64,000 nucleotides of DNA from Alloascoidea hylecoeti (GCA_001600815.1 BCKZ01000007.1:682001-746000), one strand, 5' to 3'. Shown: positions 4,120 to 61,359, counted from the stretch's first letter. A program made the numbers and translations. Notes: a model not told the origin generated them from the sequence alone.

Positions 4120-4342
4120 AAGAAGAGAGGAATGATGTATGCCAAGAACATATAAAAATAATAAGAAGAATGGATAAAGAGGTTTTTATTTCACTATATA
4201 TAGTAGAGATTTCCTCAGGATTTACATAGTTTCTAGTTATATAATTTAATTGGAAAATATATGAAAGGTTAAAAAAAATATTAGCACAACCAAATGTTTT
4301 TTAAAGACAAGAGCAGAAAATGCTAATTATAAGATCTGCTGA

Positions 4343-11504: not shown

Positions 11505-11745
11505 TAAAGGTAAAGGTAAAGGTAAAGGTAAAGGTAAAGGTAAAGGTAAAGGTAAAGGTAAAGGTAAAAGGTAAAGGTAAAGGTAAAGGTAAAGGTAAAG
11601 GTAAAGGTAAAGGTAAAGGTAAAGGTAAANNNNNNNNNNNNNNNGTAAAGGTAAAGGTAAAGGTAAAGGTAAAGGTAAAGGTAAAGGTAAAGGTAAAGGT
11701 AAAGGTAAAGGTAAAGGTAAAGGTAAAGGTAAAGGTAAAAGGTAA
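11505..11745. repeat. (GGTAAA)n hexanucleotide microsatellite with a 15-N assembly gap at 11630-11644
   Basis: Direct reading. True length unknown because of the gap. Confidence 0.98.
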
Positions 11746-11890
11746 TATAATACCAATTATATAAGCAAAAAAGTAAGAAAATGGCAGTCACATTTATCGA
11801 GAGGGTGAAGTTCAAAAATTAACTGTCTTTGAAAGGCGATTGAAATTTATTAGGTTAACTGTCTTCAGATTACTTGTTTGATTTTCATGA

Positions 11891-33221: not shown

Positions 33222-34877
33222 CTATACCTCTTCAACACCCTTTTCATTAGTAGTGATTGTACTACTGGAATTAAGTTGTGGTTGTTGAGCTTTAAGAGTC
33301 TCATACTTTAATGTTAGTTTTTTATCGTCCCGTAAGGTTAGATAAGTAGCAATTACCGTCATTATTAACCCAAGAGAAGATATACAGGCTGTGAATGTAA
33401 AACCGACATGATACCTTGGCAAATCAGTAGCATTCCAAGTGAAAATTGGAACCCAAGAATTAGTAACATAAGGCATAACATTTGTAACAGCCACTATTAG
33501 ATTTCTTTTCTGGTCATCATAAAATAATAAACTGTTAACCCAACAGAAAATCATCGGCTGACCCATTGCAGTCGGTGTCGTAACGGCATAATAAGCAAGC
33601 CAATGCAGTCCAGTTGGAATATTCCATATGGCAAGACAAACACAACCAAATATAGACATTGTGAAATAAATATACACGAACACGTATGTCTTACCTTTCA
33701 TATAATCTGCAGAGAATGCAGTTATTAATGCTAGAGCAATGGCAGCACCACTAGCTGAAGTTGGATATAAGTTGAACTGATCTTTAGACATTTTCATTAT
33801 ATATTTCAGCCAACCTGAAAAGGTAGGTTGATCTGAAGCTTGACATGAATTATTATAGCATAAAAATAATATAGGAAATACCCAAATATGCCATGTACTA
33901 AAAGTTGATTTGATTTTAGCCCAAGTATATGGTTGGCGCGTATTTAGTTGGGCTCCTATTCTCCTTCTTCTTTCAATTGCAATCTTTTTTTCATCCTTTG
34001 AAAAGTACCAAGAGGTACAGGTACTTGGTGTATTTGGATCTACACACATTGTGTATATTGCAACAGGATAAGATATTACAGCATCGAATACAAATAGCCA
34101 TTTCCACGGAGGATATTTAGTATTTGTTTTCCCAATGCCATTTATAATAGCAGTTACTAAAAACCCTGTTACCATTTTCCCTGCAGTTCCTGCAACTGAA
34201 AACAGAGAAGATCTCTTTGTAAGCTCCTCTTTAGAATACCATGAACCAATAAGATATTCCATACCAGGAAAAAATCCACTCTCTGTTAGACCAACAAGGA
34301 ATCTAATTGCATATAAGTGTTCGACCTTGGTAGCAGCTATTGAGCAAATTGTCAGAGTTCCCCACAATAACTCCAACCCTCCAAGGTAAAACCGAGCTGA
34401 GATACAGTGAAGAATTAGGTTCGAAGGAATTTGACCAACAATATAACCGACAGTCCATAATGTTTGCATATAATTTAGTTGGCTACCAGTCATTGCTAAA
34501 TCTTCTTTCATACCATTGATATAAGCGGCATTAATATTAGTCTGATCCAAATATTTCACAAAATATCCTAGCATCGAACTTGACATCAAGAAAAAATCGA
34601 GCTTTAATAGAAACTTCCTCTCTTCTTCTGATTTGTCAACAGAGTCCCATAAGAATTTTTGAACTTTATAGCTCCATTTATTTCTTCTAACTTTCTCTTC
34701 CTCGCTCAAAACCGGTTCGCTTTCGGATGTGCATTCTAAATCAGATAAAATAGAAGTATCACTATAGTTTTTAGAGTTTATATGTCTTGAATCTTCATTA
34801 ATATTGTGGTTGGAGCAGACAGAATTCTTGTCACTATTATTATAATTAAGACGTTGGTCGATATCTACCTCTACCAT
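33222..34877 (-). CDS. MFS permease, Fen2/Liz1-like, paralog 2
   Basis: Same motif set as paralog 1; 551-aa intact ORF. Confidence 0.95.
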   Translation of the reverse strand: MVEVDIDQRLNYNNSDKNSVCSNHNINEDSRHINSKNYSDTSILSDLECTSESEPVLSEEEKVRRNKWSYKVQKFLWDSVDKSEEERKFLLKLDFFLMSSSMLGYFVKYLDQTNINAAYINGMKEDLAMTGSQLNYMQTLWTVGYIVGQIPSNLILHCISARFYLGGLELLWGTLTICSIAATKVEHLYAIRFLVGLTESGFFPGMEYLIGSWYSKEELTKRSSLFSVAGTAGKMVTGFLVTAIINGIGKTNTKYPPWKWLFVFDAVISYPVAIYTMCVDPNTPSTCTSWYFSKDEKKIAIERRRRIGAQLNTRQPYTWAKIKSTFSTWHIWVFPILFLCYNNSCQASDQPTFSGWLKYIMKMSKDQFNLYPTSASGAAIALALITAFSADYMKGKTYVFVYIYFTMSIFGCVCLAIWNIPTGLHWLAYYAVTTPTAMGQPMIFCWVNSLLFYDDQKRNLIVAVTNVMPYVTNSWVPIFTWNATDLPRYHVGFTFTACISSLGLIMTVIATYLTLRDDKKLTLKYETLKAQQPQLNSSSTITTNEKGVEEV

Positions 34878-38804: not shown

Positions 38805-40511
38805 TTAATATTCTATTCTAGTTGCCAAACCTTTACTCCTCCTACTGTTTTGTTCATCGCGCAGAGTAAATAATTGGGCAACGCAAACAAATCCCAGCCC
38901 CAAAAAGCAAAGGAATCCTGTATACACAAACCCAATATGGTACTCAGGCATATCTCTGGCGTTCCACGTCAATATGGGGACCCAAGAGTTTGTAACATAT
39001 GCCAGACAATTCGTGATGGAAACAACAAAGCTTCGCTTCTCGTCATTATCGAATAGCAGCCGATTCACCCAACAGAAGATCATTGGTTGGCCCATCGTTC
39101 CAGGTGCCGCTGATATGTAATACGAAGCCCAATGTAGCCAATTTGGAATATCCCATATTGATAGACAAATTGATGCGAATCCCACTAAAATAAAGTATAC
39201 AATCAAGAAAGGCCATGTGGTCCCGTTGTTCGCATCTGAGATCGTTGCACATATTGTAGCTACTACTATTGAAAGTGCAGTGGTCGATATCGGATAAAGG
39301 TTATATTCTGTCGGCTTATAGCCAAGAGTAATCTTTAACCAACTAATAAACGTTGGTTGACCATGAATTGCCCCCGAGTTATTATAGCAGAGAAATAATA
39401 AGGGGAATACCCAAATGTGCCAAGTGTTCCCAAAACTCTTGATTTTAGCCCATGTTAAAGGTATGGTATTTGAATCCTCATCTACCCAGTCTTCACAATC
39501 TGCACCTATCTTTTTTCTTCTTTCAATTGCAATTTCTTTTTCTCTTTCCGTAAAATACCATGCTTTACTTGTAGCCGGAGTGTTGGGATTAACTGCTATG
39601 GTATACAAGGCAATTGGTAATGAAATCAAAAAGTCAAATAAAAAGAGCCATTTCCATGTAGATAATCCACCAAGACCAGTATTACTACCGTTATCATTAT
39701 CATTTTCAACATCTCCTATAACTTTCAAAACCCCGGTAATGATTATCCCAGTACATAAAGTGCCCAGTGTCCCAGCACAAGCAAACAATGAACTTCTCTT
39801 CGTCAATTCATTTTGCGAGTACCATGATCCTACTAAATATTCCATTCCTGGGAAAAAGCCACTCTCCGTTAAGCCAACTAAAAATCTAATCAAATAAAAC
39901 CATTTAATATCCTCAATAAAAATTGAAACTAATGTTAGCAAACTCCATATGACCTCCAGACCACCAAAGTATAAATTAGGTGGTATCTTATAATGAATTA
40001 ATAACATATTTGAAGGAACCTGACCTATTATATAACCGATTGTCCATAAAGTTTGCAGATAGTTTAGTTCTGATCCATCCATATGGAATTCTTCTTTAAG
40101 ACCATTTAAATATGATATATTTAGATTTCCTTGGTTTAGATATTTGATAAAGTAGCCAAGTGTAGAGGAAGATAAGAGGAAAAAATCTAGTTTAAAAAGA
40201 AATATCATTTCTTCTGGCTTTTTATTTGGATCTTTATAAAGCGTCGTTATTATTTCATAAAATATTCTTTTTATTTTTGATTTTAATGTTCCTGGGGCGT
40301 TGTTATAATGATAGTTGGAATGATAGTTGGAATTGGCAGATGTGGTGATTCCCATATCAATATCATCTACCCCTTCATAACCATATTCACGAGTGCTTAA
40401 GCTTGAATGATTAGATTTTTTAGTAAATAACATACAGTTTGACTCATAAAGAGATCCATAAGTATTTTTCTTGCTGGGCTGTAGTTTGGAGTTGGGACTG
40501 GAGTTAGACAT
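38805..40511 (-). CDS. MFS permease, Fen2/Liz1-like, paralog 3 (most divergent)
   Basis: Same motifs, with a longer N-terminus and loop insertions. Confidence 0.95.
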   Translation of the reverse strand: MSNSSPNSKLQPSKKNTYGSLYESNCMLFTKKSNHSSLSTREYGYEGVDDIDMGITTSANSNYHSNYHYNNAPGTLKSKIKRIFYEIITTLYKDPNKKPEEMIFLFKLDFFLLSSSTLGYFIKYLNQGNLNISYLNGLKEEFHMDGSELNYLQTLWTIGYIIGQVPSNMLLIHYKIPPNLYFGGLEVIWSLLTLVSIFIEDIKWFYLIRFLVGLTESGFFPGMEYLVGSWYSQNELTKRSSLFACAGTLGTLCTGIIITGVLKVIGDVENDNDNGSNTGLGGLSTWKWLFLFDFLISLPIALYTIAVNPNTPATSKAWYFTEREKEIAIERRKKIGADCEDWVDEDSNTIPLTWAKIKSFGNTWHIWVFPLLFLCYNNSGAIHGQPTFISWLKITLGYKPTEYNLYPISTTALSIVVATICATISDANNGTTWPFLIVYFILVGFASICLSIWDIPNWLHWASYYISAAPGTMGQPMIFCWVNRLLFDNDEKRSFVVSITNCLAYVTNSWVPILTWNARDMPEYHIGFVYTGFLCFLGLGFVCVAQLFTLRDEQNSRRSKGLATRIEY

Positions 40512-43080: not shown

Positions 43081-44024
43081 ATGGATCGTTCTTTAGATGA
43101 AATTATTGGAAATAATGTATGTTCCAAGTAATTATCATATTGTTTTCTGGCCCATTTTTATTCTAACTTGGGTTGACGTATAAGGATACAAAAAAGCGTG
43201 GATATAGAAGAAACCATGGTAGTGTAAGAAAGTCTCGTGATCATGGAAGAGGTAGAAGGAATGATAGGCAATATAGGTATGTCAAACGTTGCGGATTGTG
43301 CTATTGACAATGGCTTCTGAAGAATAGAACCTAATGGTGAAATAGGGACAACAGAAAAAAAAGGCTACTGGTTTCGAATCTTCATTATGAGCTAAACGAA
43401 ACAGACATATATGTAAGTTAAGATGATTTATGAATCCCATAATCTACTGTAAATTGAAATGGTTAGCTAATTCGGAATTTTTTCAATTTTGATAAATAGG
43501 ATCTATTCTCTCAGGTTGGGGATTTAGCAGAAGTTCACCTTCATTATGATAAAGCAGGTCGTTCCGAAGGGTCAGCAACAGTCGAATATTCTGATCCCGC
43601 TGATATAGATGAAGCAATACGTCGATTTGATGGAAAAACTGCTGTTGGAATGAAGATTTCAGTGAAAGTGGATATTCCATTAGAAAACCGAATTGGAGCA
43701 CGACCACGACGTAGAGATAGTAGAAACAATCGAAAATCTCGGAGTCCTAGAAGTGATGATAAAGATAAAAAAAGAAATGGTGGTAGAAGGCAAAAAAAGA
43801 GTTTGGAGGAATTAGATGCAGAGTTGAATAATTATATGGGAATAGAAGGAGATAATACCAACGAAAGCACGGCTGTTAATGGTGAATTGGGTAAATCAAT
43901 CAATAGTGATGACGAAAAAACTTTGACAAATGAGCCAGAGAATTCGGTGGACGGTAATTTACCAACAATCCCGGAAGCTGAACCTACTACACAAGTTAAT
44001 GACGATCAGATGATTCTTGATTGA
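43081..44024 (+). CDS. Yra1/REF(Aly)-family RRM mRNA-export adaptor (239 aa); exons 43081-43116, 43185-43276, 43346-43412, 43500-44024
   Basis: N-box MDRSLDEII, RRM (LLVSNLHYEL..DLFSQVG..YDKAGRSEGSA), C-box KKSLEELDAELNNYM. Three GT-AG introns give an open frame. Confidence 0.88.
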
Positions 44025-44380
44025 TCTGATAATATCATGGGCAATATTGTTCCAAATTTTGTCTATAAAAGATGTCTTTTTTAAAAAATAGTTTTAATGC
44101 TCATAGTGCAATAAATGATCTAACACAAGGATCTAACACTTTTGTTAGAGACCAGATGTAATAATCATGATAAAAATACTCAAATAAATGTGTACACCTA
44201 TAAAATACTCACTCAGTTTAATAACTTAAACAATTTATTATAAGCTTATCATATATGTAACTAACAAAAAGTAACAATATAAAACATAAACATAATTACA
44301 AATGCATATTAACTTGCGAGTCTTTCCTAACTATGACACACTATTTTAACTGTGTACCTATTAGATGGATCTATCCTCCG

Positions 44381-46018
44381 TTAGAGCTTTTCAGTATCAT
44401 TGACTGTGGTAGCAGAGATCTTGTCCCCTGACTTTGTTTGTTCATGTTGCTTTTCAGATTTATAAAGTTGACGCCTTTCTTCCGCCCTTTTATCATCTCT
44501 CTTAGTGAGAAAGAGAGCAATAGTTGTCATAATAATACCTAAAGAAGATAAGCATGCCGTGAAAGTAAAACCTACATGGTATTCTGGTAAATCATCGGCA
44601 CTCCATGTGAAAATGGGAAGCCAAGCATTGGTGACATATGCCAAGACATTGGTGACAGCTACTGTCAAGTTTCTTTTTTGATCATCGTAGAAGAGTAGTC
44701 TATTAACCCAACAAAAGATCATAGGTTGTCCCATTGTGTTAGGAACTGTAACTGCATAATAAGCGAACCAATGTAATCCTATCGGAATATCCCAAATTGA
44801 TAAACAAATGCAACCAAATAGCAAGGAAACAAAAAATACATAAACAAAAGGATATGTTCGACCCTTTAAGTAATCTGCTAAATAAGCCGCAAATATGGCA
44901 CATCCAATAGCAGCACCACTAGCTGAGGTTGGATACATATTATAATGCTCTTGGGACATTCCTAAAGAATATTTTAACCAACCTGAGAATGTAGGTTGAC
45001 CACTTGCATTACAAGAATTATTATAGCATAAAAACAATATAGGAAATACCCAAATGTGCCATGTATTGAATATTGATTTGATTTTTTCCCAAGTATATGG
45101 CTGACGTGTATTAAGCTGTGCACCTATTCTTTTTCTTCTTTCAATTGCAATCTCCTTTTGTCTTTCAGTCAAGTACCAAGCTGTACAGGTACTTGGTGTA
45201 TTTGGATCAACGCACATAGTATAGATTCCAACAGGATAAGATATTACAGCATCGAATACAAAAAGCCATTTCCATGCCGGATATTTTGTATTTGTTTTAC
45301 CAATACCATCTATAATAGCGGATACTAGAAATCCAGTTACCATTTGGCCAGCGGTACCAGCACATGCAAATAAGGCAGAACGTTTGGTAATTTCTTCTTT
45401 AGAATACCACGAGCCAACAAGATATTCCATACCAGGAAAAAATCCACTCTCTGTTAAACCAACAAGGAATCTAATTGCGTATAAGTGTTCGACCTTGGTA
45501 ACAGCTGTTGTGCAAATAGTCAAAGTAGCCCAAACAAATTCCAACCCTCCGAGATAAAACCGAGCTGAGATACGGTGAAGAATTAGATTTGAAGGAATTT
45601 GACCAACAATATAACCGACAGTCCACAATGTTTGCATATAATTTAATTGACTACCAGTCATTGATAGATCTTCTTTCATACCATTAAGGTATGCGCTATT
45701 AAGGTTGGCCTGGTCTAGGTATTTAATGAAATATCCCAACATCGAACTTGATAGTAAGAAGAAATCTAACTTAGCCAAGAACCTCTGCTCTTCTTCTGAT
45801 TTATCAACCGAATCCCATAGGAATTTCTTTACTTTATAATTCCATTTACTCCTTTTAAGTTTTTCCTCTTCTGACAAACTTTCTTCTTCATCATAGTCGA
45901 GATATGTCTCATCGAAACCCTGACCTGATGTAATAATTGTAGTGGGTTGTTTTTCATCTTCACTTGATTCATTCTCAATGTCCTTATGGTGTCCTCTACC
46001 CAGATGAATTGTAACCAT
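44381..46018 (-). CDS. MFS permease, Fen2/Liz1-like, paralog 4
   Basis: Same motifs; near-identical DNA blocks with paralog 2. Confidence 0.95.
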   Translation of the reverse strand: MVTIHLGRGHHKDIENESSEDEKQPTTIITSGQGFDETYLDYDEEESLSEEEKLKRSKWNYKVKKFLWDSVDKSEEEQRFLAKLDFFLLSSSMLGYFIKYLDQANLNSAYLNGMKEDLSMTGSQLNYMQTLWTVGYIVGQIPSNLILHRISARFYLGGLEFVWATLTICTTAVTKVEHLYAIRFLVGLTESGFFPGMEYLVGSWYSKEEITKRSALFACAGTAGQMVTGFLVSAIIDGIGKTNTKYPAWKWLFVFDAVISYPVGIYTMCVDPNTPSTCTAWYLTERQKEIAIERRKRIGAQLNTRQPYTWEKIKSIFNTWHIWVFPILFLCYNNSCNASGQPTFSGWLKYSLGMSQEHYNMYPTSASGAAIGCAIFAAYLADYLKGRTYPFVYVFFVSLLFGCICLSIWDIPIGLHWFAYYAVTVPNTMGQPMIFCWVNRLLFYDDQKRNLTVAVTNVLAYVTNAWLPIFTWSADDLPEYHVGFTFTACLSSLGIIMTTIALFLTKRDDKRAEERRQLYKSEKQHEQTKSGDKISATTVNDTEKL

Positions 46019-47305
46019 CTTGATATCAATTTAAGGTCCTATAGAGATTTAATATGCTAATTATAACAGTTGCAAAATAATCACTATGTGAAGATAATAA
46101 CTAGAATAAGGAGATAAAGTTGGAGTCCTACCTTTTATATTCAGATTTTTTCTTCTATTAATCAGTATTTTAAATTGGTTTTAGGAGCTTGTGAAGCTTA
46201 ATTTTTTATAAGCTCATATATTACATGATAACCGATAATAATAATTTTGATGCATGCCAATATTGTTATATATTGATCAAAGTAGAAAAAGTTTTTGTTT
46301 AATAAATAAATTCGCAATATCTTTGCATATTAGCTCATGAGAGCTGAACAAATCAAAATTACATCTTCGACAATTATTATTTGAAAATATTTTAATTTAA
46401 ATGTAGGCTGTAAGTCGCATTATCAATGATCGGGGCATCAACACCTAATATTCACATGCCTTCTGTGTGGTAAATTGATATATAGTGAAATGAAGTTACG
46501 CTTCATTTGCAATTGAGATGGTAGAAGTGATAAATATGTAGGTAAATACATTAACACAAATGTACCTTCGGATCATGCATATGACTTGATTCACGATGTT
46601 TTAATAATTATAGCTAGAATGGTAATTCTAAAGATTACTATCTTATAATTTTTTCATTGAAATATAATATTCCACATTTATATATTTTAAGATCTAGAGA
46701 TTAAGCTTTTCAATCGGGATTCGGGAAGGCTTATAAATATCAATTCCAAGCATTAGATTGCTTAAATCTGTTAAATACAGTGCATAAACTGATATAATAC
46801 TGATCTAATTATATTCGCAATATTTTTACATATTTGCTCATTGGATTCAAAATTAATTATCCATAATTATCCATAATTATCCACTTCTTCATCATCAAAA
46901 TTTATCATATATGTGTAGGCCCCATATGCCTGCTAAATTTTCTATCTAGATCTTTGTTATATAATTAATATTGATCATGATATGACCGGTGCAATACTGA
47001 TAAATTATATGGTAGATATAGTAAGATTAAGAAGTACTCTATAAGGTTATAAATAGCTATAAAACTAGATATGAGAGGAGGAGAATGTCATTATTTCGAC
47101 TGGTTCACGGTCAGAATATTTGTCCAAAATATATATTTAATATTCCTTCTTCAAAATCTTGTTCTAATAATTTCTACATGACGTTAAACTGGTTGACTGG
47201 CCCCATATCTATATCTTCTAAGCTTACAATTTTCTCATTGAATTCAAAAATTAAATATTATATACCACGCTAATTCATATGACAACTAGATAAGGCTTTT
47301 TAACT

Positions 47306-47510
47306 TATACTACATGTTTCCAGTTACTTTAGGCTACCTTTGATGAATAAATATCTCCCCATCCCATTACTGATAACTTTTTCTATACTATGATTATATT
47401 ATAGATGTATACGGATTAAGCTTATAGTATAGAAAAAGTTATCAGTAATGGGATGGGGAGATATTAATTTATCAAATGTGGACGAAATTAAGTGGAATAA
47501 TTGTATTATA
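47306..47510. repeat. Long inverted repeat: perfect 42-bp arms (47350-47391 / 47424-47465), 32-nt spacer, diverged outer arms
   Basis: AATATCTCCCCATCCCATTACTGATAACTTTTTCTATACTAT and its exact reverse complement. Confidence 0.95.
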
Positions 47511-49624
47511 TCTTATCACTGCATCATAAATAGTCACGTGTAATAGCGAATAATGCTTCACTTCTTATGTTTTTTTCTTTGACCTCCACAGTCCACACTG
47601 CATTATTTTTATTTTTATTACATATACATGGTATCAAATTTTTTTATTTACCATGCGGCTCTTAACTAATTATAACCAGTACGCCGTACATGTACCAGTA
47701 AGCAGTACTAAGCACGCGAATTATAAACCAGATATAATGCTATACCGATAGTTACACCGAATTGCATTAAATCACAGATTCACAACATGATTATGGCTAT
47801 ATAATAAGACCCACTGTCAAGGCAACTTCAGAATCTTTAAATATTTCCTCAGATATTTATTGCTAGTTACTATAGATGAGTACTCTTGAAGAACTTCTAT
47901 ATTGGAGATACTTTATAGCTAAAGTTGGTACCTGCATGTCTCTGCATTATTGTTTGATGAGTTAATGGATGGCTTTACTTTGCTTCACAATATTAGAAAT
48001 CAACAAAAATATCAGAGGTAGCTTGGCCATTATTTTGATGGCTCCTACAGCTGGAAATTTGAGTTGTTGTTGAACACAAATATAAAGGCATCATTTCTAA
48101 GTTATTGGAGTTAGCTTTGGGTAGTACTAATTTTAATACTGATCTTGATCATGATATAATCTCACAATTAAAACAGATCTATATGTATTTAGATACGACA
48201 TCGTTAGTATTGCGAAAAGCAACAGTGATCCATCCAATACATACTTCACTAATTATTTTCACAAATTTCATGATGAGTAAATTTACAAAAGAATTTAAAG
48301 AACTTTAGTGAATGGATAAAATAAGAGAGTTGATAGATCGACTTTAAGGTTTTGGATTTAATTTTGATTTCCTCTTTTAAGTGGTTTCTAGATATAAACT
48401 TTTCATGTTGCAACACTAATTAAACGTAGTAAAGTATTGCTTTAACGAGAGCGGAATTTGAGCTGAAGGGCGAGATTGTGTTACCTATAGAATCTCCCTA
48501 ATAACAACAGACTAAATGTAGGAATGAACGATTAATGAACGACGAATAAAACGATGAGTAAACCAATAAATAATGTGTAATATAACCTACGAACAAAGGA
48601 GAGGAAATCACCTACCTAGTGAAAAATTTCAGCATTTTCATATTTAAAACTTTTTGATCACAAAACAGAATATTTCGATCTGAATAAGAAGTGGTAGAGG
48701 TTTTCCATTCTTCCATTCTATGATCGATCAATAGTAGTTAAGCTTCTAAGAGTCACACTAGATACGTAAAGCTGTGGCACCTTAATCTTTTTGATTTTTT
48801 GGTCTTTTGATTTCAGTAATTATGCAAAAAGTGCTTTATGGAAGAAAAGAAGATAGATCACTAAATTTCCATACTAATCGCCAAAAAAAAAAACTCACAG
48901 AAAATGCTAGTTAAAAAAAAAAATTAGCGTTATGAATTAGTGGAAATTTTATTTAAAGGGGTTCCGAAACATAATTTAGTTAAAAAAAAACATAAAAGAC
49001 ATAAGTTAGAAGCATCTTTAGATCTAGAGGGAAAGATAAGTTATGAAGAGGTTCTATACCCTCACATATAGGTACAGTATAAAGTAGACAGGCTCGTTAC
49101 GAGAAAAGAAGTGAAGAGTTCTAGATTAACAAATCTGAATCTAGACTACCAAATCAAATTTAAGTTTTGACCATTCCTAAAAGACAGTAATCTAAATTTG
49201 CAGAAGTAGCTGTAATTAGCTTATATACCAATATCTTAAACCAGGTTATAGCATGTGCACGTTAGTCTCAATATGAGCATGATATATTAGTGTGACACAG
49301 ATATTTATAGTTAAACAAGCATACATAATTTGGTTTACGCGTAGCAGTTATAAAGGATTAAGAAAATATCTGACGAGGACTCTTCATATATATTTTTATG
49401 ATAAATAGAGTGGACAGTTCACCATTTTTCCGGCTCTTAAATTCATATAATTTTTAATTTGTACCATGGCCGGTTGCAGTATAATCCCCGCGGATTTTCT
49501 TTCGAGAATAAGTCAATTTCAAAATACCTAAACTAGCTAACTTATATGTTTATATAATATACAAAGTATACGGTCCTTCATCTTTCCTTCATTTCTCTTT
49601 CATAATCCTAACTTATTATTTGAA

Positions 49625-50440
49625 ATGACGACTTCAGTCACAAAATACTCATTGGAAGTTCCAACAGTTATGAACTCAGTTTTACCAAAGCCTCAGCAAT
49701 GGGATGGCGACCCATACACACTATATAAGTTTATATCGCAGATGGACAGATATTTGTCAAGCTTTTCTCCTAGGTTAACAAGAGAAATCGCGCTTCAGCT
49801 ATATCTAGATTCGTTGCCAGAAATTATTTTAGATAAAGTGGAGTATGATATCTATGGCGTTACTTCATATACTTCAACTGCTATTAACTATGGTAATGGT
49901 TCCACCCAAAGGTATCCAACTGGACCTGATGAGCTGACAGCGCGTTTGAAAGAGATTTTCAAGCCTAATATGGAAGCAAGAACAGTTAAAAAGATTGAAA
50001 CTATAGCTATGAACCAATATGATAGTCTAGACGAGTATGCGAGAGACCATTATGTGTTGGCTTGTATGGTGCCAGATAGAGCAGTTAACAAAAAGCATGG
50101 AACTGCCGATACATTCATAAAGGAAACATTTTTTAAAGGTTTATCCCCCGAATTACAGAAAAAATATAGAGGTGAGTATGATAACTATCAATTTTATGAT
50201 CCTTTCAGGTTGAAAGTCGTTATGGATGAACAAAAAGTTTGCTGCAAAAAAGGTTCTTTAATGTTTCCACATTCAAAATTTGCTGGGCTTAACCAAGATG
50301 ACCCAAATTTAAAAGAAATGTGTGATCCTGTGCGGTTGGGAAGATCAATCACAGCCCCTAAAACCAAATCGTATCCTAGGAATATTTACACAAAAGATCT
50401 CGAAGATAAGTTTGAAAGCCTTAAATATATTATATCGTAA
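49625..50440 (+). CDS. Stand-alone Ty3/gypsy-type Gag capsid protein (271 aa)
   Basis: PKPQQWDGDPYTLYKFISQMDRY (capsid N-domain start), MNQYDSLDEYARDHYVLA (major-homology-region-like), ETFFKGLSPELQKK. No CCHC knuckle and no downstream pol. Confidence 0.8.
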   Translation: MTTSVTKYSLEVPTVMNSVLPKPQQWDGDPYTLYKFISQMDRYLSSFSPRLTREIALQLYLDSLPEIILDKVEYDIYGVTSYTSTAINYGNGSTQRYPTGPDELTARLKEIFKPNMEARTVKKIETIAMNQYDSLDEYARDHYVLACMVPDRAVNKKHGTADTFIKETFFKGLSPELQKKYRGEYDNYQFYDPFRLKVVMDEQKVCCKKGSLMFPHSKFAGLNQDDPNLKEMCDPVRLGRSITAPKTKSYPRNIYTKDLEDKFESLKYIIS

Positions 50441-51731
50441 CGCTAGCTTTTCGAATAAAAGCTATTATACTTAAATGTTTCCTTAATTCCAAGTTTATTC
50501 TACTATTATTGTTTTCAGATGTAGCAATTGTAATTACATCGAGAGAGCCAGAATGATATCGATATCTATTGCAAATATACCATGGCCATTTGCATGAAAA
50601 ATAATCATAATTATTCATATATTTCATCTTAAACAATCAATCTATTCTACATTATAAATTTTTAATCCCATTATAATCCCCCATTTCTCACTTTGAATAA
50701 TTCAAATCCATAATTTATATTAGTTTGCCCCAATAGTTTAAGTGTTTTGGATTTTACGAGACCCCGCATCTTATTTTCTAATTTTTGTAATAAATGGTTG
50801 TGGTAGGATTTTGATTTGTGAGCTATCCGGTTCTTATGCCTTATCATGTCTAAAATAATATTTTAGAATATCTTTTCGTGTCAACAATCAGCATAGCATG
50901 CCTTAATCCTGCACGAGAATGATCCGAGTTCCTAGCTCCAGGAATATATCATGTGCGGTTTCTGATGGTAATTGTGGTTGGGCTGTTATCGGATAAATTG
51001 TATATTCTAGTTCTTCACTACCCCATTCGCTTATAACATCACTTAATATAGACCTCATTGAAAGAAAAGCAGCATTAGATTCAATACTCAATACAGTCTA
51101 CTGCGGTTCTCTGATTGTTCTCTAGAATCGTCAATACTGTTTAAATCTTCATACAATCTAGAAGAGGCAAAATGACAGAGAACGTCGGGGAAAATCTCCC
51201 CCTTACTATTTTGTTTCCCTATCCCATAGGTTAACTCAATCCGACTAACGTAACCCAATAAATAAGGGTCTTTTTACTTAGGATTAAAGGAAACTCTTGT
51301 AGCTCATGATACTTCTTCAAAATTGATGCCAATTGTGAACATCTTAAGCCTTTTAAGGGAAAAGCAAAGATGTCTATTGTCATTGCTTTACTAATATAAG
51401 CATCAAACTGAGGTTCTTATTTATTATCCAATAGTTGTAGTCCATTAAAGAAAATCATTTGATCTACAATACCTCCATTTCTAAATCGACTAATTATCAT
51501 TGTTGTGATACCAAAACCACCATGGCTGGGATTATATATTTAAGTGCACCAGCCAATTCAAAGTTCAAACATCATAACTACAACGCTAAATGAGTATAAA
51601 CAGAATTTTTTTTTTAACTTTTCATATATTTTCCAATTAAATTATATAACTAGAAACTATGTAAATTCTCAGAAAAACAAATTGCCTAATATATAAAGGT
51701 ATCTAAACAAAGAGAGCCAGGAGTTGAGTTT

Positions 51732-51804
51732 GCCTTGATGGCCAAGTTGGTAAGGCGTAACACTAGTAATGTTAAGATCGTTGGTTCGAATCCGACTTGA
51801 GGCA
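51732..51804 (+). tRNA. tRNA-Thr (anticodon AGU), 73 nt, no intron
   Basis: Acceptor GCCTTGA/TTGAGGC, D arm TGGCCAAGTTGGTAAGGC, anticodon arm TAACA-CTAGTAA-TGTTA, T arm GTTGG-TTCGAAT-CCGAC. Confidence 0.97.
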
Positions 51805-51805
51805 A

Positions 51806-51812
51806 TTTTTTT
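51806..51812 (+). terminator. Pol III oligo-T terminator (T7)
   Basis: TTTTTTT two bases after the tRNA 3' end. Confidence 0.85.
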
Positions 51813-51814
51813 AT

Positions 51815-54800
51815 CTTAAAAACCCCTTTGATTTTTGCTGGGATATATTCAAGGAGTTGTTGAGTCACATATCAAATAATGAACTCAATATCATTTTACG
51901 CTTTGGTTCAAATCCTTCCTATGGAAAGAATCAACCCATTGTTAAAGGTGGCGGTCATTGCTACGGTGGAAAAATAACTGGCCAATTTTGTCAACCAATT
52001 GGTTTTCTTGCAAACAATTTGAATGATACAGATAATCTATCTTAGATTATCGTTAAGGCACCAAACTTTCTCTTAGTAGAAGTTCCCGATAATACACCCA
52101 CTGCTATTCCAAAGGTAGTGACTTTATGGTACCTCTCGAGGTAGATGGGTCAACCTCGGTATCCATTGCTCACTCTTTCCGACTTCAATTGAAGCCAAAC
52201 GGAAAGCTATATTGTATTCACTGAAATTCACTTTCCCACGGTAAAGTAAGTTGTCCCCAACAGCTTATTAATCATTTGCCAATTGTTTCTGGTGGCGCGA
52301 GAACTCAGTAGCAACAAGCCGCTAATCCTCCCCCGCGTTGCTACAAAAGGACAAAGATCAACTATTTTATCCTATATCTATTTGCTGATTATGAGGCAAT
52401 AACAGGTCTGTGATGCCCTTAGACGTTCTGGGCCGCACGCGCGCTACACTGACAGAGTCAGCGAGTCTTAACCTTGGCCGAGAGTGGGTAGAACTTTAGC
52501 ACAGGAACCCCGGATTCNGTACCGATTTGGCACCCATTCTGGTACCAGTACAAAATGTCACCACAGCATGAGCTCATAAACAGTGTTACTCTTATCTCCT
52601 TCGTGATATCTTTAGTTTTACGAGGGAAACTAAACAAAAAAAACTGAGTGAACTGAAACATCTGATTAACTCAAGGAAAAAAATCAACCGAGATTTATCA
52701 AAGTAGTGGTGAGCGAAAGATAAACAGCCTAACAAAGTAAGTATTACGTGGTAATGATAGATAACTTCCTTTTTCCAAAAAAGAAGGCTCGCAAGGTTGC
52801 TCAGGCATCCGTTCTGGCAAACACCTCCTATCCCTATTTGGAAAAAAATCCTTTTAGGGTCCTCGAAAAGCTGAGGGATCCGGATCCAATTGAGGAGAAT
52901 CTCCAAGCACCCGCCCCTCCACTTAAAATCTCCACCCCATTAAGAAAGAAACCCCCCAAAAACAAAACGCTTATCCGTCAAGACCTTCTACTCCCATTGC
53001 GGATGTTGATGCAATGGAATCGGAGGCTGACGAATCTCCAAATAGTGAATCCTCGGATGACTTTTCCGTAGCCGAAGATTCTTCTGAAAATGAAGATGCC
53101 GCCTTTGCTGCAGATTTGAAATCAGAAAAGAATCCCCTTTTAAACATGTCATCATCTAACAAGGATGAACGATATATCCCTAACCAAATGGAGGCCGTTG
53201 ACGCAATGGATATCACAGATTCCGAAGCAGAAGGGTACCCAGAAAACTTTTCATTGGATTCTGGTGTTGCATCAGATACTATAGATCTTCCTGAACATAC
53301 GGTGACTGCTACTCAACCGGTAACAGACATTAACATATTTAATAACACTAATCATATCCCTGCGAGGCCATTAATGTCCCCCGAGGAATCTCCTTGGAAT
53401 ACCAGATGTCTACGCTCTAGGAGTCATTACTCAAGCCCTACTAAAGGGAATAATAGATCTCATTTTAATAAATTAAACGCCGATACAACTATACAAAAGG
53501 GTTCACCAGCTGGGCCTAATAACGTACCACCATCTTCTTTAAATTATTAATATCAGAGTATATAAATATTTCCTCACAAAATGTGAGAAGATTCTCAAAA
53601 TCAATTCAATCGTTAATTATTAACTGGTTTATACAAAATGACAAGTTAACAATTTTATCATTACAAGAAACTTGAGGCTGTGACTTCCTCAGCTTAAGAA
53701 AGCAGCTCCAGGAAATCGAAATTGAGATGGTTTATTCAAACTTGACAATCATTCTAATTAAAACATGTTTCCACAAAAATACCAAGACACCAAATATGGA
53801 ACTCTTTGCTCAAAATATTAGAGAACCATTTCGCTATACTTTTCAAGCACATACTTCCCTTATTCACATAGAATATCAAAAGGATTTTATCATCATCATC
53901 AATTCCTATGTACCATGCACAGGCCACGAAAGAATAGAATATTTCAAAACAATGAAGCCTTTTATCCAACGTGTATCAAAGCACCAAGTAATATGGGGAG
54001 GTGACCTCAACTGTGTTGAATTACCTTCTCTTGACTCTTCGGTTCCTACTAGAATTAAAGATCAAGGAGTCAGTCAGCTATAAGAACTTCTGAGTCAATA
54101 TTCTTTAATTGATTCTTTTAGAGAATTAAACCCAACAAAGAAACAATTTTTCAATATTCAATCTGCAATATCTCTGCTTAACAATGCTGATAACGTTCGT
54201 TACATTTGTAAAGGACACATTCGATTGCCAGAAGAATTTCCAGCCTATAAACATTGGATGGTTAAAAAATCCGAAATAAAGAAACTTGCGAGGGAACTGA
54301 CTTTTATACTTAAGAACAAGGGGTCTGGTCCATAAATGAAAATGAAATAGAGAAAGCTCAACAAATAACAAAAACCAACATTCAAGGGCAATCACTAAAT
54401 GACCTGTTACGTCTTCAAAAGTATCGTACAAAAAAGATGGAAATAGCCTTGCTTAATGGGTCTGATGATCAATGTGAAATGGAAAATATAGTTGTCGATT
54501 ATTTTTCCAAAAAAGTGTTTTATGAAAAGCAAATTGAGGATGGAGCTATAAAACAATTATTTGCATCCTTTGAACCCGGCCATCTGATATCCAAAGATCT
54601 GATGCATTTAAACTACCCAATCACGTCAAATGAGCTTTGAAACGCAATTGTCCAATCTAATAGAGATAGTGTCCCAGGTCAGGACGGTATTGGAACTTTC
54701 TTTTATAAGCAAGCTTTTAATTTTATAAAGGATGATTTTCTGAAATTTGCGAACTCTCTTCTGACAAATGAAATTCCTAATTTTATGACACATAATGTTT

Positions 54801-56700
54801 TTGTATTATTATTGAAGGATAAGGCCAAAAAAGGCGACATAAATGGTTATCGTCCAATAGCTATACTGAATTCAGACATACGAATCATACACCAGATTTT
54901 AAACATTAGACTCCAATCATTATTAAAAGGGATTGTGTTGGAACATCAAACGGCCTTTATTCCTGGGAGATCTATATCGACCAATATTCACCTTCGCCAG
55001 TTATTATTCATTGACCCAGATACTAAGTTTATTAGCCGGAACCCATACCAGGCGCTCATCATGGTGTATTTTAAAAAGGCATATGATATGTTAGGCATTG
55101 AATACATACACAGAGTTCTTGAACATTTAGGCCTGGGTCCTCATTTTATAAACGCTGTTATGGGGTCCATCATAATAACATACGAACGAGGTGCATCATA
55201 GTAAATATTTACGTTATGTCCAAGACGCTTTTTCTTATGGAATTTATTCCACCCCCAAAAGGTATCTTGAACGACATTATGAAAATAATTAAAAATAATA
55301 TAGGTACATATGGACAAGTATCGCTCAAAGTGTTGGCAACTCCTGCAAAGAGTGGAGGTTATGGTCTGACAGACCTAATGGTTCAACAGAAAGGCCGTCA
55401 TTCCTATCATTTATCATCATTACTAACCAATGACGATGAGGATCTCCAAATCACAATCAGGGAACAAATGATATTTCATGGGGTAAAAGCCTCAATATTA
55501 GCAAATAAAATAATGGAAAAAGAAAAAAAAAGCTAAAAAAGATAATTTATTACACCTGGATTGGGATCAAATGTTATTAATCAATAATAAATATCTTCAT
55601 GAAAATTTTTCAACAGAAAATGTGCATTACCTCCAATGCTTTAAGCAAAACCTCAAAATAATCCAGCCCTGGAACACATATATAGCCCATTTCTGGGACA
55701 CCACAAAAGTTGGTGACATAAACCAACAATATATTAAAAATAAAAGTTTAAGGTCAATTAAAGAATTCAATGAATCCATGGAATTGATAAAAAAATCAGC
55801 AAAAACCCAAATTTTAAAAGTAGAGGACTTTATTGGTCTACAAAATGAAGTGCTCGACAAATTCAGTAGGAGGAGCATTTGTAAAACATTTTTCAAAGCA
55901 AACCAAAAAGTATTAGTACCAAAAGAAATGGAAAAAACCTACAAAATTGGAATCAATAGATGGGATTTGCTATGGAAAGCAATCCACAAAAATAACCTAT
56001 ATTTATCAAACGTAATAGATGACTATCAAATATTCTGCAGTGGTTCATATTTACATTTTTACAACCCTAAAGACAAAAAATGTCCTTGCTGTGAAAAGTT
56101 GGAATTATCCTTTGAACATGTTTTCTCGACATGTGAAATTACAAAGAAAATATGGTCCTATAACCAAAAGGTGATAGATCTCTAAAAGAAAAGGAAATTG
56201 AAGTGAAATCTTTTCTTGATTTTAATCATAAGGAAAGAAAAGAATTAATATTAAGAGCGGTAACAGTTTTTTTGGTTAGAAAATATCACAGAATATATCA
56301 CCAACAGGAAAATAGTATATCAGGATTACAGTGGGCCAAAAATGATTGAAAGAGACTCATAAAGCTTTGCTCTGAATCACTTCGGTGCTACAGACATAAA
56401 AAGAAAGAGGAAAGATGATACATATGATATCTATTATTAGTATTGATTGAGTAAAAGGTTGAGAATGGAGGCAATAATACTATAGAAAGTAACAACATTA
56501 CTCAAAAAAGAGTGAACCTATAACATTTGTAATAGGAATTTTTGCCTAATATTAGGTCTTTTTATTTTCACAATTTTTTTGGTTACTATGAAGGTAGTAT
56601 TTAGAGATTAGTAAGTTTAATATAGAGCCTTAATGGTCACTTAGTGAGGAGAGAGAAGAATCGATTATTTTTTAAATACAGAAATAAATAAAGAAACTTG
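51815..56700 (+). mobile_element. Decayed L1-clade (Zorro-like) non-LTR retrotransposon
   Basis: ORF1 zinc-knuckle relic YCIH*NSLSHGKVSCP (~52210-52260). APE endonuclease SQNVR..LSLQET, WGGDLN, LIDSFRELNP (~53560-54150). RT N-part PGQDG, YRPIAILNSD, QTAFIPGRSI, FKKAYD (~54660-55170). C-terminal CPCCE..SFEHVFSTC. Many stops and frameshifts; ends approximate. Confidence 0.93.
52392..52484 (+). rRNA. 93-bp fragment of 18S rRNA (non-functional insert)
   Basis: TGAGGCAATAACAGGTCTGTGATGCCCTTAGACGTTCTGGGCCGCACGCGCGCTACACTGAC...AACCTTGGCCGAGAG is the conserved eukaryotic SSU 3'-major-domain sequence; the flanks are not rRNA. Confidence 0.95.
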
Positions 56701-57598
56701 TTACAATTACAATATATAATTATAAATTTAAACAGTTTATAAAAAATCAATCTCAAATCAAAACCTGAAATGGGCGGCTTGATTCGTCATTACATTTTAT
56801 CCTTTTTATCTATATAAGGCCAAAAATTGTCAGCTTAACAAAGCTTAAGGTTTTAGTGATGTATGGCTTAAAGTTGAGTCATACCACTGTTGAACAAATA
56901 TTAACGCCATTAACGTTCTTCGTCCATATATAAGCAGATTCCCATAGTCCAAATGATGACGGATATATTTCATTGCCACCAAAAACTTCTAGATCAGAAA
57001 ACGAATTTCTGCTTCTGCGAACAGATTTTGTGATAATATTATAGGTAAAATATTTATTAAGTGTCAATATACGGTATCATTTATATTTAACTACGTACAC
57101 TTAATTTATATATTTATACCCGTTATTGTTCATTTACCATAAACTCTACTAGAATTTTGTACGTAAGACTTGATCCTGAGATTGGTGACCCTTGGGATGG
57201 ATTTCTTAAGAATTATTTTGGCCTTTTCTCCATCTCAAGCTCAAATTCATATAATTATACCCATCAAATTAATTGCAGCCTATCATATATGGATATAGAT
57301 CGCCTTTCTTACTGGATGATATTTTTTAAGATATAAGCTTATATGTGTTATGCATTGCAATTATGCCCCCGCTATGTATACCTGATGGATCGGGACGTTA
57401 AATATGTGCAATCGGGGGGTATCGGGCATTAATATTATTATTATATAATTACAAAAAAAATAATTTTCAATCAAGCTAATCTGAAAGATAGGTATGATAT
57501 AAAAGGGCCTTCCGATCCCTCATCATATCCTCCTACTTTTTTGATCACGATCTTATAAATATTGATCCTATTCCCAACTAGATATATACCAACTGAAT

Positions 57599-58408
57599 AT
57601 GTCTGACTTTGATATTGAAAAGGGTGGAATTGAAACAAGTTCACCAAGCGAAAGAAACCCAGTTCCTATTCAAAGAATAAAAACTTCTGGCGCTAACAAT
57701 GAAATTGTTCATATCGGAGACACCATGGTGTATAAGGATGATTTTATCAGGGCATTTGGTGGTTCTTTAGTCCCAGGATTGATGCATGTCCCAGTACACA
57801 AATTTGCTAATCCGGCTCCTCTTGGTTTATCCGCTTTCTCCCTAACAACATTTGTTTTGTCTTTATGCAATGCCCAGGCACGTTCAGTAACTGAACCAAA
57901 TATTGTAGTTGGATTGGCCTTCTTTTATGGTGGTCTTATTCAATTATGCGCAGGTATGTGGGAAATGGCTGTTCAAAATACATTTGGTGCAACAGCTTTG
58001 TCGTCATATGGTGGCTTCTGGATGTCATATGCCTGTATACAAGTTGATGGATTTGGAATTGTATCTGCTTATGGCGATAATGAACACGAGCTACAAAGTG
58101 CCATTGGGTTCTATCTTATTGGTTGGTTCATATTCACATTTTTATTAGTGCTGTGTACGATGAAATCTACTGTTGCTTTTTGTGCATTGTTCGCATTTTT
58201 GGATCTAACTTTTTTAATGTTGGCTATTGGTGAATTTCAGAATAGTGTCAATTGCACAAAAGCAGGAGGTGTTCTAGGAATAATTACAGCTTTTATAGGA
58301 TGGTATAACGCTTTCGCTGGTATTTCCAATCATGAGAACTCCTACATTAATGTTAGACCATTCTATCTTCCCAGCCCTCAACAAAAGCCAGAAGATGCTA
58401 AAGAATAA
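57599..58408 (+). CDS. ADY2: Gpr1/Fun34/YaaH (Ato) family acetate/ammonia transporter
   Basis: AFGG.L.PG, FANPAPLGLSAF, NTFGATALSSYGGFW. Confidence 0.93.
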   Translation: MSDFDIEKGGIETSSPSERNPVPIQRIKTSGANNEIVHIGDTMVYKDDFIRAFGGSLVPGLMHVPVHKFANPAPLGLSAFSLTTFVLSLCNAQARSVTEPNIVVGLAFFYGGLIQLCAGMWEMAVQNTFGATALSSYGGFWMSYACIQVDGFGIVSAYGDNEHELQSAIGFYLIGWFIFTFLLVLCTMKSTVAFCALFAFLDLTFLMLAIGEFQNSVNCTKAGGVLGIITAFIGWYNAFAGISNHENSYINVRPFYLPSPQQKPEDAKE

Positions 58409-61359
58409 AATATTATAAATTAAAAAAATAAAATAATAAAATATTAATATTTATCATTTTAAAAAAATGATGGATGATAAAACAGAGCTTTTCTATAGCT
58501 ATACGTAGAAGTAATTTATAACTAAACATTTGGATGATTTACTTCGGAATTTTTCATGATTATTGTTATAGCCTATAATTATAGATCGTAAACAATGTTA
58601 TAACTATTATGTATCACAGGCGTGTGTAAATGATTGTTTCTAGAGTCTCCAATTGATATATATATTACAAGCCCAGAGGGAAAAACCTTGATAAGCTTAG
58701 TTGTTTTAAGCTTAAGCTTCAGTGAATCAGTATTCAAAGTATCTATAGCTATAGGTAGGATGGTACGGTTATCAGTAAGCTAGTACTTGTACTAGTAAAA
58801 CCCAGTGCTGGTGCTGATCATGGAGATAGTTCCCTAAAGAAGTATATTATCTTATAATAATATTACTATCCCATCATTATTTTAAGAATGCTATTGTACA
58901 CATGAGGTTTAGATCCTAAATGATTATTTATGATGATGTTTACGTACACTGCTATAATATTCCAGGAATTTTTTAATTCCACGCTTAACCTTAAGCTTCT
59001 ACTTGCAATTGTGGTCTCCAATGACTCTCCATTTAGTATTTTAAAGGAGATAAGTGCGTTTCCCCACGTACCATCTTGTGATTATCTTATATCTAGGCAT
59101 ATTGGTATTGTTTGATGAGGCGACACTTGTGTATCATCATTTGAGAATCTATTTTTACACAAACAATAATCCTGACATGATAAATTCGACAGGTGAATTC
59201 AAAGATTGACCAATGAAAATTTGAGTAAATGATTTAGAAATTCAAGAATGGATTCAATATAGCTAGGCAGCACCAAATTTGATCTCCAAGATGGCTTACT
59301 TTTTCACAATTCTGTACCAATAAAATATGTGCACTATCTCTAGATCTTATCGTTTACTGCTCTTATATTTGAGTTCAGTATTATGAATTTATGAATATCA
59401 GTCTTGTTGAGTTTTCTGCTTATCATTTTCTTAAATGGTCACATATCGACGCAAATCTATATCTGATGGTTTATATTGTAAGTATTATCCCGTACCTGAG
59501 AATATATGTAGGTATATTTTTGTAATTTGAGGTTTCTCAGATTTGCCTGAGGGATGGGTCGTAAAACTTGATCTCCATTCATAACCTTGCATGTATTTTG
59601 TTATATTCAAACTTAAATTGTTTCCACTAGTCCGATATTTTCAAGTAGTCTTTATACCACAATGGACTAACGCAAAGCTTAAGGAGTACAAAGTCCACTC
59701 TAATTACTAATTAAAATTATGTGGAACGATGGTGAATGAGTAGGATTAGATACCTGATCATTTTTGATGTTTATGTACAAAATGTAACACTATATTAATC
59801 TTACAGAAGATTATGTCTCTGAATTTCAAGTAGCTAATTATGAAAGCTTAAGGAAAGCTTAAGGCTTGACCTTCGAACCATATCTGAGATACATAAGCGC
59901 ATTTCCCCACTAGTACCTACTACGTACTACCTAGTGTCTACTATCTAGTATACCTACCGCCTCGTGGCTATATATGATTAATACGTAGTATTACATAGTA
60001 TTACGTACGCAATATTTCTAATAAAGGCCAACAAAGCCTGGGATTGAAGATATATAATTCTTTTTATAGTTACTACACTATAAGCCGTATCATCTTGTTG
60101 ATATTTTCTTTAAAAGTCTACGGAAGGAGGAAAAAAGAAATCAAAGGAGAAATGACATACAATCGCAAAAGCATACCAATTGCGGATCTGTGAGATCGAT
60201 ATAAAACTACAAAATATTAGTATCAATGAACTTGTGGTTCAACTTCGGGTTTCTTCAAACATAAATATAGCTTCTAATATTATAATTAAAAGTCATATTT
60301 CAGATTAATATTTTATAATTGAACATATCTCTTACTTCTTTCTTTCCCCTCTCGGTCCCTCTACAAAATCTAGATCTTATGTTACACACCTTCTTAATCA
60401 TCCATATAAAAACTTTATAACAAATATGAAGCTCAAGTTTCATGATCATAATATTATTACGCATTTCTTAAGTTGATACCAAGATACAACCGATTACAAG
60501 TATAGAAATGTACGACTATATGTATAAATTTATAGCTTAATTATTAATTAAGACCTGGGACAAAGACAAAGGGCAAAAGAGTCAATTGAAACAAATTGTA
60601 TTACATGTAGCTTCCTGTAGATATTGAGGGACATGCGCTCGTCTCCTAATTAGGTAATAAATTGCAAGTAATCATCTCATCTCACTTTATAATATTTATC
60701 GATATCCATACTAAACACACTATTTTTTATTATCATATAGTTACACACGTCTCGCAAAGTCTGTAGAAAATGTTGATCTTTGTGTCCAGCATTAAACATT
60801 AACTAAGCTTCTTTTTCCTTCCCTCAATTGGCCCCGAAGTACAGGTGACTCCTAGTAGTCCCCGTCTCCTTGAATAGAGACACCAAAGAATATGTATCAT
60901 ATGACTACCAAATTACCACGTTGGGATGATTTCAATGCCTGATATCCATAATCCTATTCAATTACCAGGTGTTTTAAGATATATTAATACAGCGCCGAAA
61001 GACTGTTTATTAATGAATAGGTTTAAGCCTCTTGGCACCATTTAAGCTTAAGCTTAAAGCTTAAAATTGCAGCTTGGCATTTGTATTATTTTGAATTTAT
61101 CTAAAACAATCACTGTAAACGATGCACGTGTAAAGATATAATGTTTATTATAGTTGATCTTTCAAACACTGCTGTTTATGTGAGTTTTATATACCTTTCA
61201 TAAATATGATAACTTATACGATATTTAGCAGCTTTATTAATATTGATAATACACCGATAACTAGGCCTATATGCAGAGCTCAATTTAGACATAGTGATGA
61301 TTGGATCGTCAGATGTGCGAGCTAAATATAATTATTATAATTTTAAAATATAGTATTAT

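Follow-up and report, generated by a model that had tools for sequence, protein, structure and literature searches.

A candidate solo capsid gene of Ty3/gypsy type upstream of a tRNA-Thr gene in the yeast Alloascoidea hylecoeti

Genes that consist only of the capsid part of a retrotransposon have repeatedly become host genes, as with Arc, PEG10 and PNMA in animals and DRT2 in Saccharomyces. Here we describe an open reading frame (ORF) of Alloascoidea hylecoeti that may be a further example. The ORF is found in a 64,000-nucleotide stretch of genomic DNA (GCA_001600815.1 BCKZ01000007.1:682001-746000), which is called the window below and from whose first letter all positions are counted. As a putative solo, capsid-only derivative of gag, it is of a kind already known. 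Its capsid origin is supported at moderate strength, and its domestication is a reasonable candidate reading.

The closest structural family is the capsid of Ty3 Gag3 from Saccharomyces cerevisiae (Metaviridae; PDB 6r22-6r24; PF03732/PF19259). Residues 22-181 of the ORF protein are collinear with a profile region that matches Ty3 Gag at an expectation value (E) of 1e-19, and the protein carries the motif order of Ty3-type gags, which is P-x-x-aromatic-x-G, then F-x-P...Q...[VL]-x-x-Y, then F-x-x-G-L. Ty3 targets tRNA genes. The ORF likewise lies upstream of a tRNA gene, but it is 1.3 kb away and not at the tRNA start site. Also in contrast to Ty3, it has no Pfam match, no CCHC nucleocapsid, no protease, reverse transcriptase (RT) or integrase, and no long terminal repeats (LTRs).

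The closest functional analogues are DRT2 and the Ty1 p22/p18 proteins, which are restriction factors of Saccharomyces. DRT2 is an exapted piece of the gag of Ty1', an element of the Ty1/copia type; it comprises the capsid C-terminal domain only, occupies a relic locus, is transcribed, and restricts the known co-resident Ty1' (PMC10951436). The ORF is similarly a putative stand-alone, capsid-derived frame at a relic locus of a budding yeast, and an action through capsid contacts is proposed for it by analogy. Unlike DRT2, the ORF resembles gag of the Ty3/gypsy type, both capsid lobes are seemingly present, and the genome has no known element related to it.

Arc/dArc, PEG10/RTL, PNMA and the fungal Crtg12-14 resemble the ORF in that they are capsid-domain genes kept without the rest of the element. 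The survey that describes them covered 2,011 eukaryotes and reports 14 deep gag co-options, of which three are fungal (two Ty1/copia, one Bel-Pao). Its scope was limited to events above the family level in annotated proteomes, and the co-opted genes are recognized by syntenic orthologues that extend across families, by purifying selection and by their expression (PMC8321522). The gag profile matched by the ORF (A1, below) also matches structures of dArc1/2, PEG10 and PNMA2. Unlike all of these genes, the ORF has no orthologue detected in our protein and metagenome searches. Also, its likeness is to the Ty3/gypsy type, unlike that of Crtg12-14.

The open reading frame and the missing remainder of an element

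The window is AT-rich (~32% GC) and yeast-like, with genes that have no obvious introns. The frame containing the ORF is open from stop to stop over 49541..50440 (299 codons), which ranks ninth by length among such frames in the window. At the window's composition the per-codon stop probability is 0.0756, and over both strands of the entire window only ~8e-6 open frames of this kind would be expected, so chance is ruled out. The uninterrupted 271-amino-acid ORF proposed by an initial sequence-only reading, which was made without database searches, is therefore borne out.

That reading also pointed to a TATA-like site upstream of the ORF and an AATAAA after its stop codon. Both are present, but they carry little weight because the words are common in this AT-rich window (n=356 for TATAWAW and n=182 for AATAAA, both strands counted). 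The start codon has a G at -3 and an A at -1 and -2. The ORF includes one CTG codon, so a CUG-reassigning genetic code would alter at most one residue. Its codon usage is host-like, with an in-frame codon log-likelihood of 0.216 bits per codon versus 0.089-0.332 for 14 host genes, and with negative values in the other five frames over the ORF.

All of the capsid motifs named by the sequence-only reading occur in the translation. These are P21-x-P23-x-x-W26-x-G28 with F36-x-x-Q39, Q130-x-x-S133-L-x-E136-Y137, and F-x-x-G-L near residue 170. The predicted capsid-like core is followed by a C-terminal tail (Table 1), and at the place matching this tail the majority line of the gag alignment A1 has a CCHC knuckle. 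The knuckle pattern C-x2-C-x4-H-x4-C is absent from the ORF translation, and no zf-CCHC match was found with Pfam.

The ORF is a single-copy, intact frame from which the rest of an element is absent. No direct repeat of at least 40 nt flanks it, and a sensitive blastn comparison of one flank with the other gave nothing LTR-like (best, 43 nt at 74% identity). Comparison of two genuine Ty3/gypsy Pol proteins with the whole 64-kb window gave only noise (best E 2.6), none of it near the ORF. The description of the gene as solo thus holds for its single copy and for the lack of an LTR pair, Pol and CCHC knuckle, with the correction that an RT does occur 4.2 kb downstream, but as part of a relic of the long interspersed nuclear element (LINE) type.

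A second copy of the ORF was not found within the window. To extend this beyond the window, contigs from two assemblies of the organism (X1 and X2) and from an independent wood-decay metagenome (X4 and X5) were aligned to positions 44000-59000 at a likeness of at least 80%; some records were left out of the depth comparison by a filter. The summed contig depth over the ORF equals that of its single covering contig in X1 (6.24), X2 (23.6) and X4 (8.3-9.6), so the ORF is single copy at this likeness, and no second copy was found in these three assemblies. Compared with the ORF, depth doubles or triples over 50.5-51.5 kb, and over 51.5-53.0 kb it rises by a factor of tens to thousands. Contigs of the same three runs bridge positions 48503-50887, which take in the ORF together with its unique flanks, and they differ from the window by no letters (X2), by 1 of 1982 (X1) and by 1 of 2111 (X4). 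The exact ORF protein is found on a 2111-bp Logan contig. An allele at NCBI (P0002) is recorded as 263 amino acids, ending at residue 263 rather than 271, and differs from the ORF protein (P0001) only by W26R.

Weak profile-level likeness to Ty3/gypsy gags

Judged by comparison with sequence profiles, the ORF quite probably derives from the capsid part of an LTR-retrotransposon gag, to which we take its kinship to be weak but real. Because the gag hypothesis was stated in advance, this one family could be tested without a library-wide penalty. Reference elements were gathered by using a short Ty3/gypsy RT motif, with 81 stretches taken from viral contigs and 118 from metagenome contigs. At loci with enough upstream DNA, ORFs located 1.25-3.8 kb upstream of the motif were taken as candidate gags (n=29). 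Profile A1 consists of all 14 of the 29 upstream ORFs that Pfam calls Retrotrans_gag. Positions ~110-281 of this profile match the structures of Ty3 Gag (6r22, at the E value given above), dArc1 and dArc2 (E ~1e-9), PEG10 and PNMA2.

Alignment of the ORF protein with A1 by hhalign gave a score of 37.5 (P 1.4e-4, probability 52.6%) over 136 columns and residues 22-181, and the result was reproduced. The aligned part is the capsid region, all named motifs are in register, and identity over the aligned columns is ~21%. HMMER with A1 and its filters off gave 7.3 bits (E 1.3e-4 at Z=1) in two collinear pieces, residues 22-46 and 117-180. Among the hhalign nulls, 18 other proteins of the window scored at most 20.6 and the reversed sequence 14.9, and shuffled sequences reached at most 27.0 over no more than 71 columns (0/120 reach 37.5). 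In HMMER, 4 of 5000 shuffles reached the score of the ORF, and all window controls were at or below -0.3.

As positive controls we used 12 ORFs that occupy the same position in reference elements and have no Pfam capsid match. Four were recovered by hhalign over the same profile region, namely L053 (P 8e-16), L121 (4e-15), L133 (1e-11) and L097 (1e-5, 117 columns), and L053 belongs to a complete chromovirus, in which RT, RNase H, integrase and chromodomain are all present. Of the others, L035 matched the zinc-knuckle region only, and the remaining seven had no strong match. Because four genuine gags missed by Pfam were recovered in this way, a Pfam miss does not exclude a gag. Pfam's capsid models overlook a good share of real gags, and the score of the ORF lies at the weak end of the genuine gag range.

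Language-model features point to the same family. In the ESM Atlas, the 30 nearest clusters include 16 with PF03732 Retrotrans_gag (score 0.93, recognition 3115) and others with Ty3_capsid, DUF4939, DUF7041 or DUF1759. A query with the allele P0002 repeats this result and is not independent of it. When seven fragments of the ORF protein were compared with Pfam, residues 95-195 matched PF22909 (Caulimovirus coat domain) over 117-187, at E 0.12 and 13.2 bits versus a cut-off of 27. This is the sole capsid-type match among the sub-threshold Pfam matches of the fragments. PF22909 is a family of the capsid kind, because in the genuine gag L149 it overlaps the matches to Retrotrans_gag and Ty3_capsid. 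The families named by the ESM features, together with the PF22909 match, suggest that the source was most likely of the Ty3/gypsy (Metaviridae) type rather than Ty1/copia. For a copia-type comparison set, an RT-motif scan of viral contigs gave five loci, none with a usable element, whose ORFs are dense and prokaryote-like. The Ty3/gypsy-type capsid of the sequence-only reading is thus supported at moderate strength, by a targeted profile with empirical nulls and by language-model features.

Host gene, relic or orphan

We lean slightly toward the view that the ORF is a solo gag-derived capsid gene and not merely a freshly dead relic. That it is maintained by the host is a candidate reading, and a tentative one. 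Because no related copy survives and a long neutral frame breaks quickly, the frame was probably either kept by selection or orphaned very recently. In simulations with substitutions only, the probability that the frame stays open is 0.54, 0.29, 0.05 and 0.002 at 1, 2, 5 and 10% neutral divergence, and with indels at one tenth of the substitution rate it is 0.30, 0.09, 0.0025 and 0. In contrast to the open capsid frame, the nearby LINE relic is broken into many frames.

Among the alternatives, the one that survives best is a non-functional relic, in which a truncated insertion of an LTR element is neither expressed nor selected and its gag frame is open only because the loss was very recent. 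The ORF does lie amid transposon debris 5' of a tRNA gene (the LINE relic, a palindrome and multi-copy repeats), and at 1-2% neutral divergence the simulated frame would survive with a probability of 0.09-0.54. Moreover, the sole known allelic difference, W26R, is a radical, non-synonymous change at the conserved aromatic residue of the [FYW]-x-G motif that starts the capsid domain in the gag alignment, which speaks for decay and against upkeep by the host. However, an insertion of recent date would be expected to leave recognizable LTRs, remnants of Pol or sister copies, none of which was found. Also, the protein is diverged to the point that nothing of 40 bits or more matches it among the 1.84 billion representatives searched, and in codon usage the ORF is no less host-like than real genes are. 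A relic appears rather unlikely.

A second alternative is that the ORF is an orphan gene, specific to its lineage, with no relation to retrotransposons, and that its likeness to Gag reflects chance or convergence in a helical protein. By ordinary searches the ORF protein is indeed a sequence orphan. A phmmer search against 1.84 billion representatives (of ~15 billion proteins), a library so large that only matches of ~40 bits or more can appear, returned only its own allele. Word-indexed protein searches at E <=10 among proteins of near length, among longer proteins and with the core region gave the same outcome. A metagenome locus search gave no relatives of the ORF, PHROGs gave one noise match (E 0.096), and the protein cluster that holds the ORF has two members, neither of them named.

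A number of results weigh against a capsid origin. The whole protein matches no Pfam family at E <=10 and nothing in NCBIfam, and it falls below the gathering score of PF03732 / PF19259. Searches of PDB by phmmer with the whole protein and two fragments returned only protocadherin noise, and neither pairwise BLASTP with two genuine gags nor tblastn with genuine gags was significant. The PF22909 match is level with noise matches to Anticodon_1 (0.031) and CagY_M (0.14). The number of shared ESM features, 116 of 256, is one that the calibration of the tool assigns to distant relatives or to hits by chance. Single-sequence AlphaFold2 models give no usable fold, with a predicted local distance difference test (pLDDT) value of 34.9 at full length and 40.3 with residues 15-192; these low-confidence models place some nine helices in residues 30-186 and leave the tail mostly unstructured.

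The outcome of hhalign also varies with the profile, which belongs among the same adverse results. A2, which consists of A1 plus the four recovered gags (18 sequences), gave P 0.0057 over 41 columns and a probability of 6.5%, as compared with 53% for A1. Its top match is out of register, in that residues 32-72 are paired with the C-terminal lobe of the profile. With the capsid cores only of all 18 sequences, the top match is again short and out of register, and a long in-register alignment (138 columns, P 9e-4) is found among the alternatives. Subsets of these cores gave P 3.6e-4 (15 longest) and P 2.2e-4 (the 14 A1 cores). In a jackknife with 22 random subsets of 9-13 of the 18 cores, which overlap and so are not independent tests, the median score was 27.9 (range, 20.6-47.9) and P ranged from 1.8e-6 to 0.037. 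The top alignment was long and in register in 9 of the 22 subsets, covered the C-terminal half (100/102-180/181) in 5, and was a short N-terminal segment in 8. The smallest P in 39 null hhalign comparisons was 0.0059, which indicates that these P-values are about four-fold optimistic.

Against an unrelated orphan stands a single hypothesis, stated beforehand, that held at an empirical p of ~1e-3 or better in two programs. In the jackknife, the ORF outscored its three matched shuffles in 22/22 subsets, and the collinear alignment covers both capsid lobes. The language-model features name the same family by a separate method, and relics of this sort are expected in just such a place, 5' of a tRNA gene and amid the debris of mobile elements. 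Collinear, profile-level likeness to Gag over both lobes is found above the empirical nulls, but it is weak and profile-dependent. We consider an unrelated orphan distinctly improbable. The gag of a live element, whether a non-autonomous gag-only LTR element or a full element broken by assembly, is very hard to credit, because although the assemblies are fragmented near the ORF (contigs of 0.5-2 kb), contigs of three runs bridge it at single-copy depth and neither LTRs nor Pol are found within 64 kb.

If the ORF is a solo gag-derived capsid gene, then an LTR retrotransposon probably inserted upstream of the tRNA-Thr gene. The element would since have been stripped of its LTRs, of the zinc knuckle of its nucleocapsid and of the whole of pol, and the capsid frame would have remained open as a single-copy gene whose codon usage is host-like. 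The protein, if expressed, would be likeliest to act through capsid-capsid contacts. Perhaps it binds the Gag of related elements and disturbs particle assembly, as Ty1 p22/p18 and DRT2 do; alternately, it might self-associate.

A present-day restriction role is a candidate that we consider unlikely. Counting against it, no related Gag of 40 bits or more was found in the 1.84 billion representatives and none at E <=10 among longer proteins, a negative that leaves unannotated or very diverged elements outside its reach. Because neither a related protein nor a second copy at 80% DNA likeness was found, no target Gag is known. The fuller scenario, in which the yeast domesticated the whole capsid domain of a tRNA-targeting element of the Ty3/gypsy type as a host gene, either as a guard or in another capsid role, is likewise doubtful.

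Genomic setting and significance

The ORF sits in the upstream landing zone of the tRNA-Thr gene for mobile elements, amid transposon debris. Table 1 lists the features of the locus and the reference gags that Pfam missed.

Table 1. Positions of the ORF, of its signals and parts, of neighboring features, and of reference gag ORFs (the latter in coordinates of their own loci)
Feature	Position	Strand	Remarks
Intact ORF (P0001)	49625..50440	+	271 codons, ATG to TAA
TATA-like heptamer	49551..49557	+	74 nt 5' of ATG; weak evidence
AATAAA	50454..50459	+	13 nt past stop codon; weak evidence
Capsid-like core, putative N- and C-terminal lobes	49688..50167	+	Residues 22-181; from profile alignment
C-terminal tail, no CCHC zinc knuckle	50183..50437	+	Residues 187-271; mostly non-helical in low-confidence model
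tRNA-Thr(AGT) gene	51731..51805	+	Rfam tRNA, 63.9 bits; 1.3 kb downstream of ORF
Decayed non-LTR (LINE-type) retrotransposon	52927-56185	+	Stop-riddled, at least 7 frames; acidic ORF1-like frame; RVT_1; zf-RVT
Genuine Ty3/gypsy gag ORF missed by Pfam	L053:1185-2459		hhalign with A1
Genuine Ty3/gypsy gag ORF missed by Pfam	L133:5990-7231		hhalign with A1
Genuine Ty3/gypsy gag ORF missed by Pfam	L097:7433-8140		hhalign with A1
Genuine Ty3/gypsy gag ORF missed by Pfam	L121:4354-4869		hhalign with A1

The LINE-type relic contains RVT_1 at 54641-55201 (E 1.2e-7) and zf-RVT at 55514-56185 (E 0.011), and a frame at 53676-54083 has what we take, by eye, to be an endonuclease motif of the LINE type. 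Contigs with paralogues of the relic differ from it at ~15% of sites (164 of ~1100 letters). Three of its four pieces have codon scores of 0.07-0.12, and the putative ORF1 piece at 52927-53547 has a score of 0.34. The RT of this relic was considered as the pol of the ORF and was rejected, since it is of the LINE type and lies on the far side of the tRNA-Thr gene.

Contig depth indicates multi-copy DNA at 51515-53017. A multi-copy repeat of ~75-90 nt at 51604-51690 (+) ends ~45-55 nt 5' of the tRNA-Thr gene and recurs at 4210-4282 (-) with 93% identity. Seven contigs of one assembly diverge at 51608, which is the left edge of this repeat. It may be a solo-LTR fragment or another tRNA-associated element, but its 73 nt are too few for an LTR, and it has no clear ends. 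Between the ORF and the tRNA gene, 50860-51562 occurs a second time in the genome, at ~89% identity, as seen in contigs 4573 and 4895 bp long. Pfam gave no match for four short minus-strand frames over 50671-51416.

Just 5' of the LINE relic, 52390-52480 and 52640-52720 (+) resemble, by eye, fragments of small- and large-subunit rRNA; Rfam at E <=0.01 gave no match over either segment. In the X4 metagenome, contig depth is 22,453 over 52016-52516 versus ~9 over the ORF, as expected for universally conserved sequence. These putative fragments may have been captured via template switching by the LINE reverse transcriptase.

The palindrome at 47306-47510 is ~205 nt long and near-perfect, with 81% identity to its own reverse complement. 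On both strands it matches plant microRNA-precursor families (MIR1120 and others) below their gathering scores, and it looks like an inverted-repeat element of the miniature inverted-repeat transposable element (MITE) type rather than a microRNA gene.

Among the products encoded in the 64-kb window are four MFS transporters, a mitochondrial carrier, a GPR1/FUN34/YaaH protein (gene at 57599-58408) and an ML-domain protein. The four transporter genes are MFS_1 paralogues within 16 kb, at 30755-32335 (+), 33222-34877 (-), 38805-40511 (-) and 44381-46018 (-), and they share DNA repeats of 74-85% identity; the group is a local gene-family expansion. Elsewhere, a long (GGTAAA)n microsatellite at 11505-11760 is split by a 15-N assembly gap (11630-11644), and a single N occurs at 52518.

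Our non-exhaustive search of the literature found no capsid gene of the Ty3/gypsy type that was domesticated in a budding yeast. A practical point is that Pfam capsid models miss several genuine Ty3/gypsy gags, and that a small targeted profile used with shuffled controls recovers them. Should conservation and expression of the ORF be shown, it would provide a case of the Ty3/gypsy type in an organism that is tractable, and its relic locus close to a tRNA gene would resemble that of DRT2. If its domestication is true, it would be the first gag co-option of the Ty3/gypsy type described in fungi.

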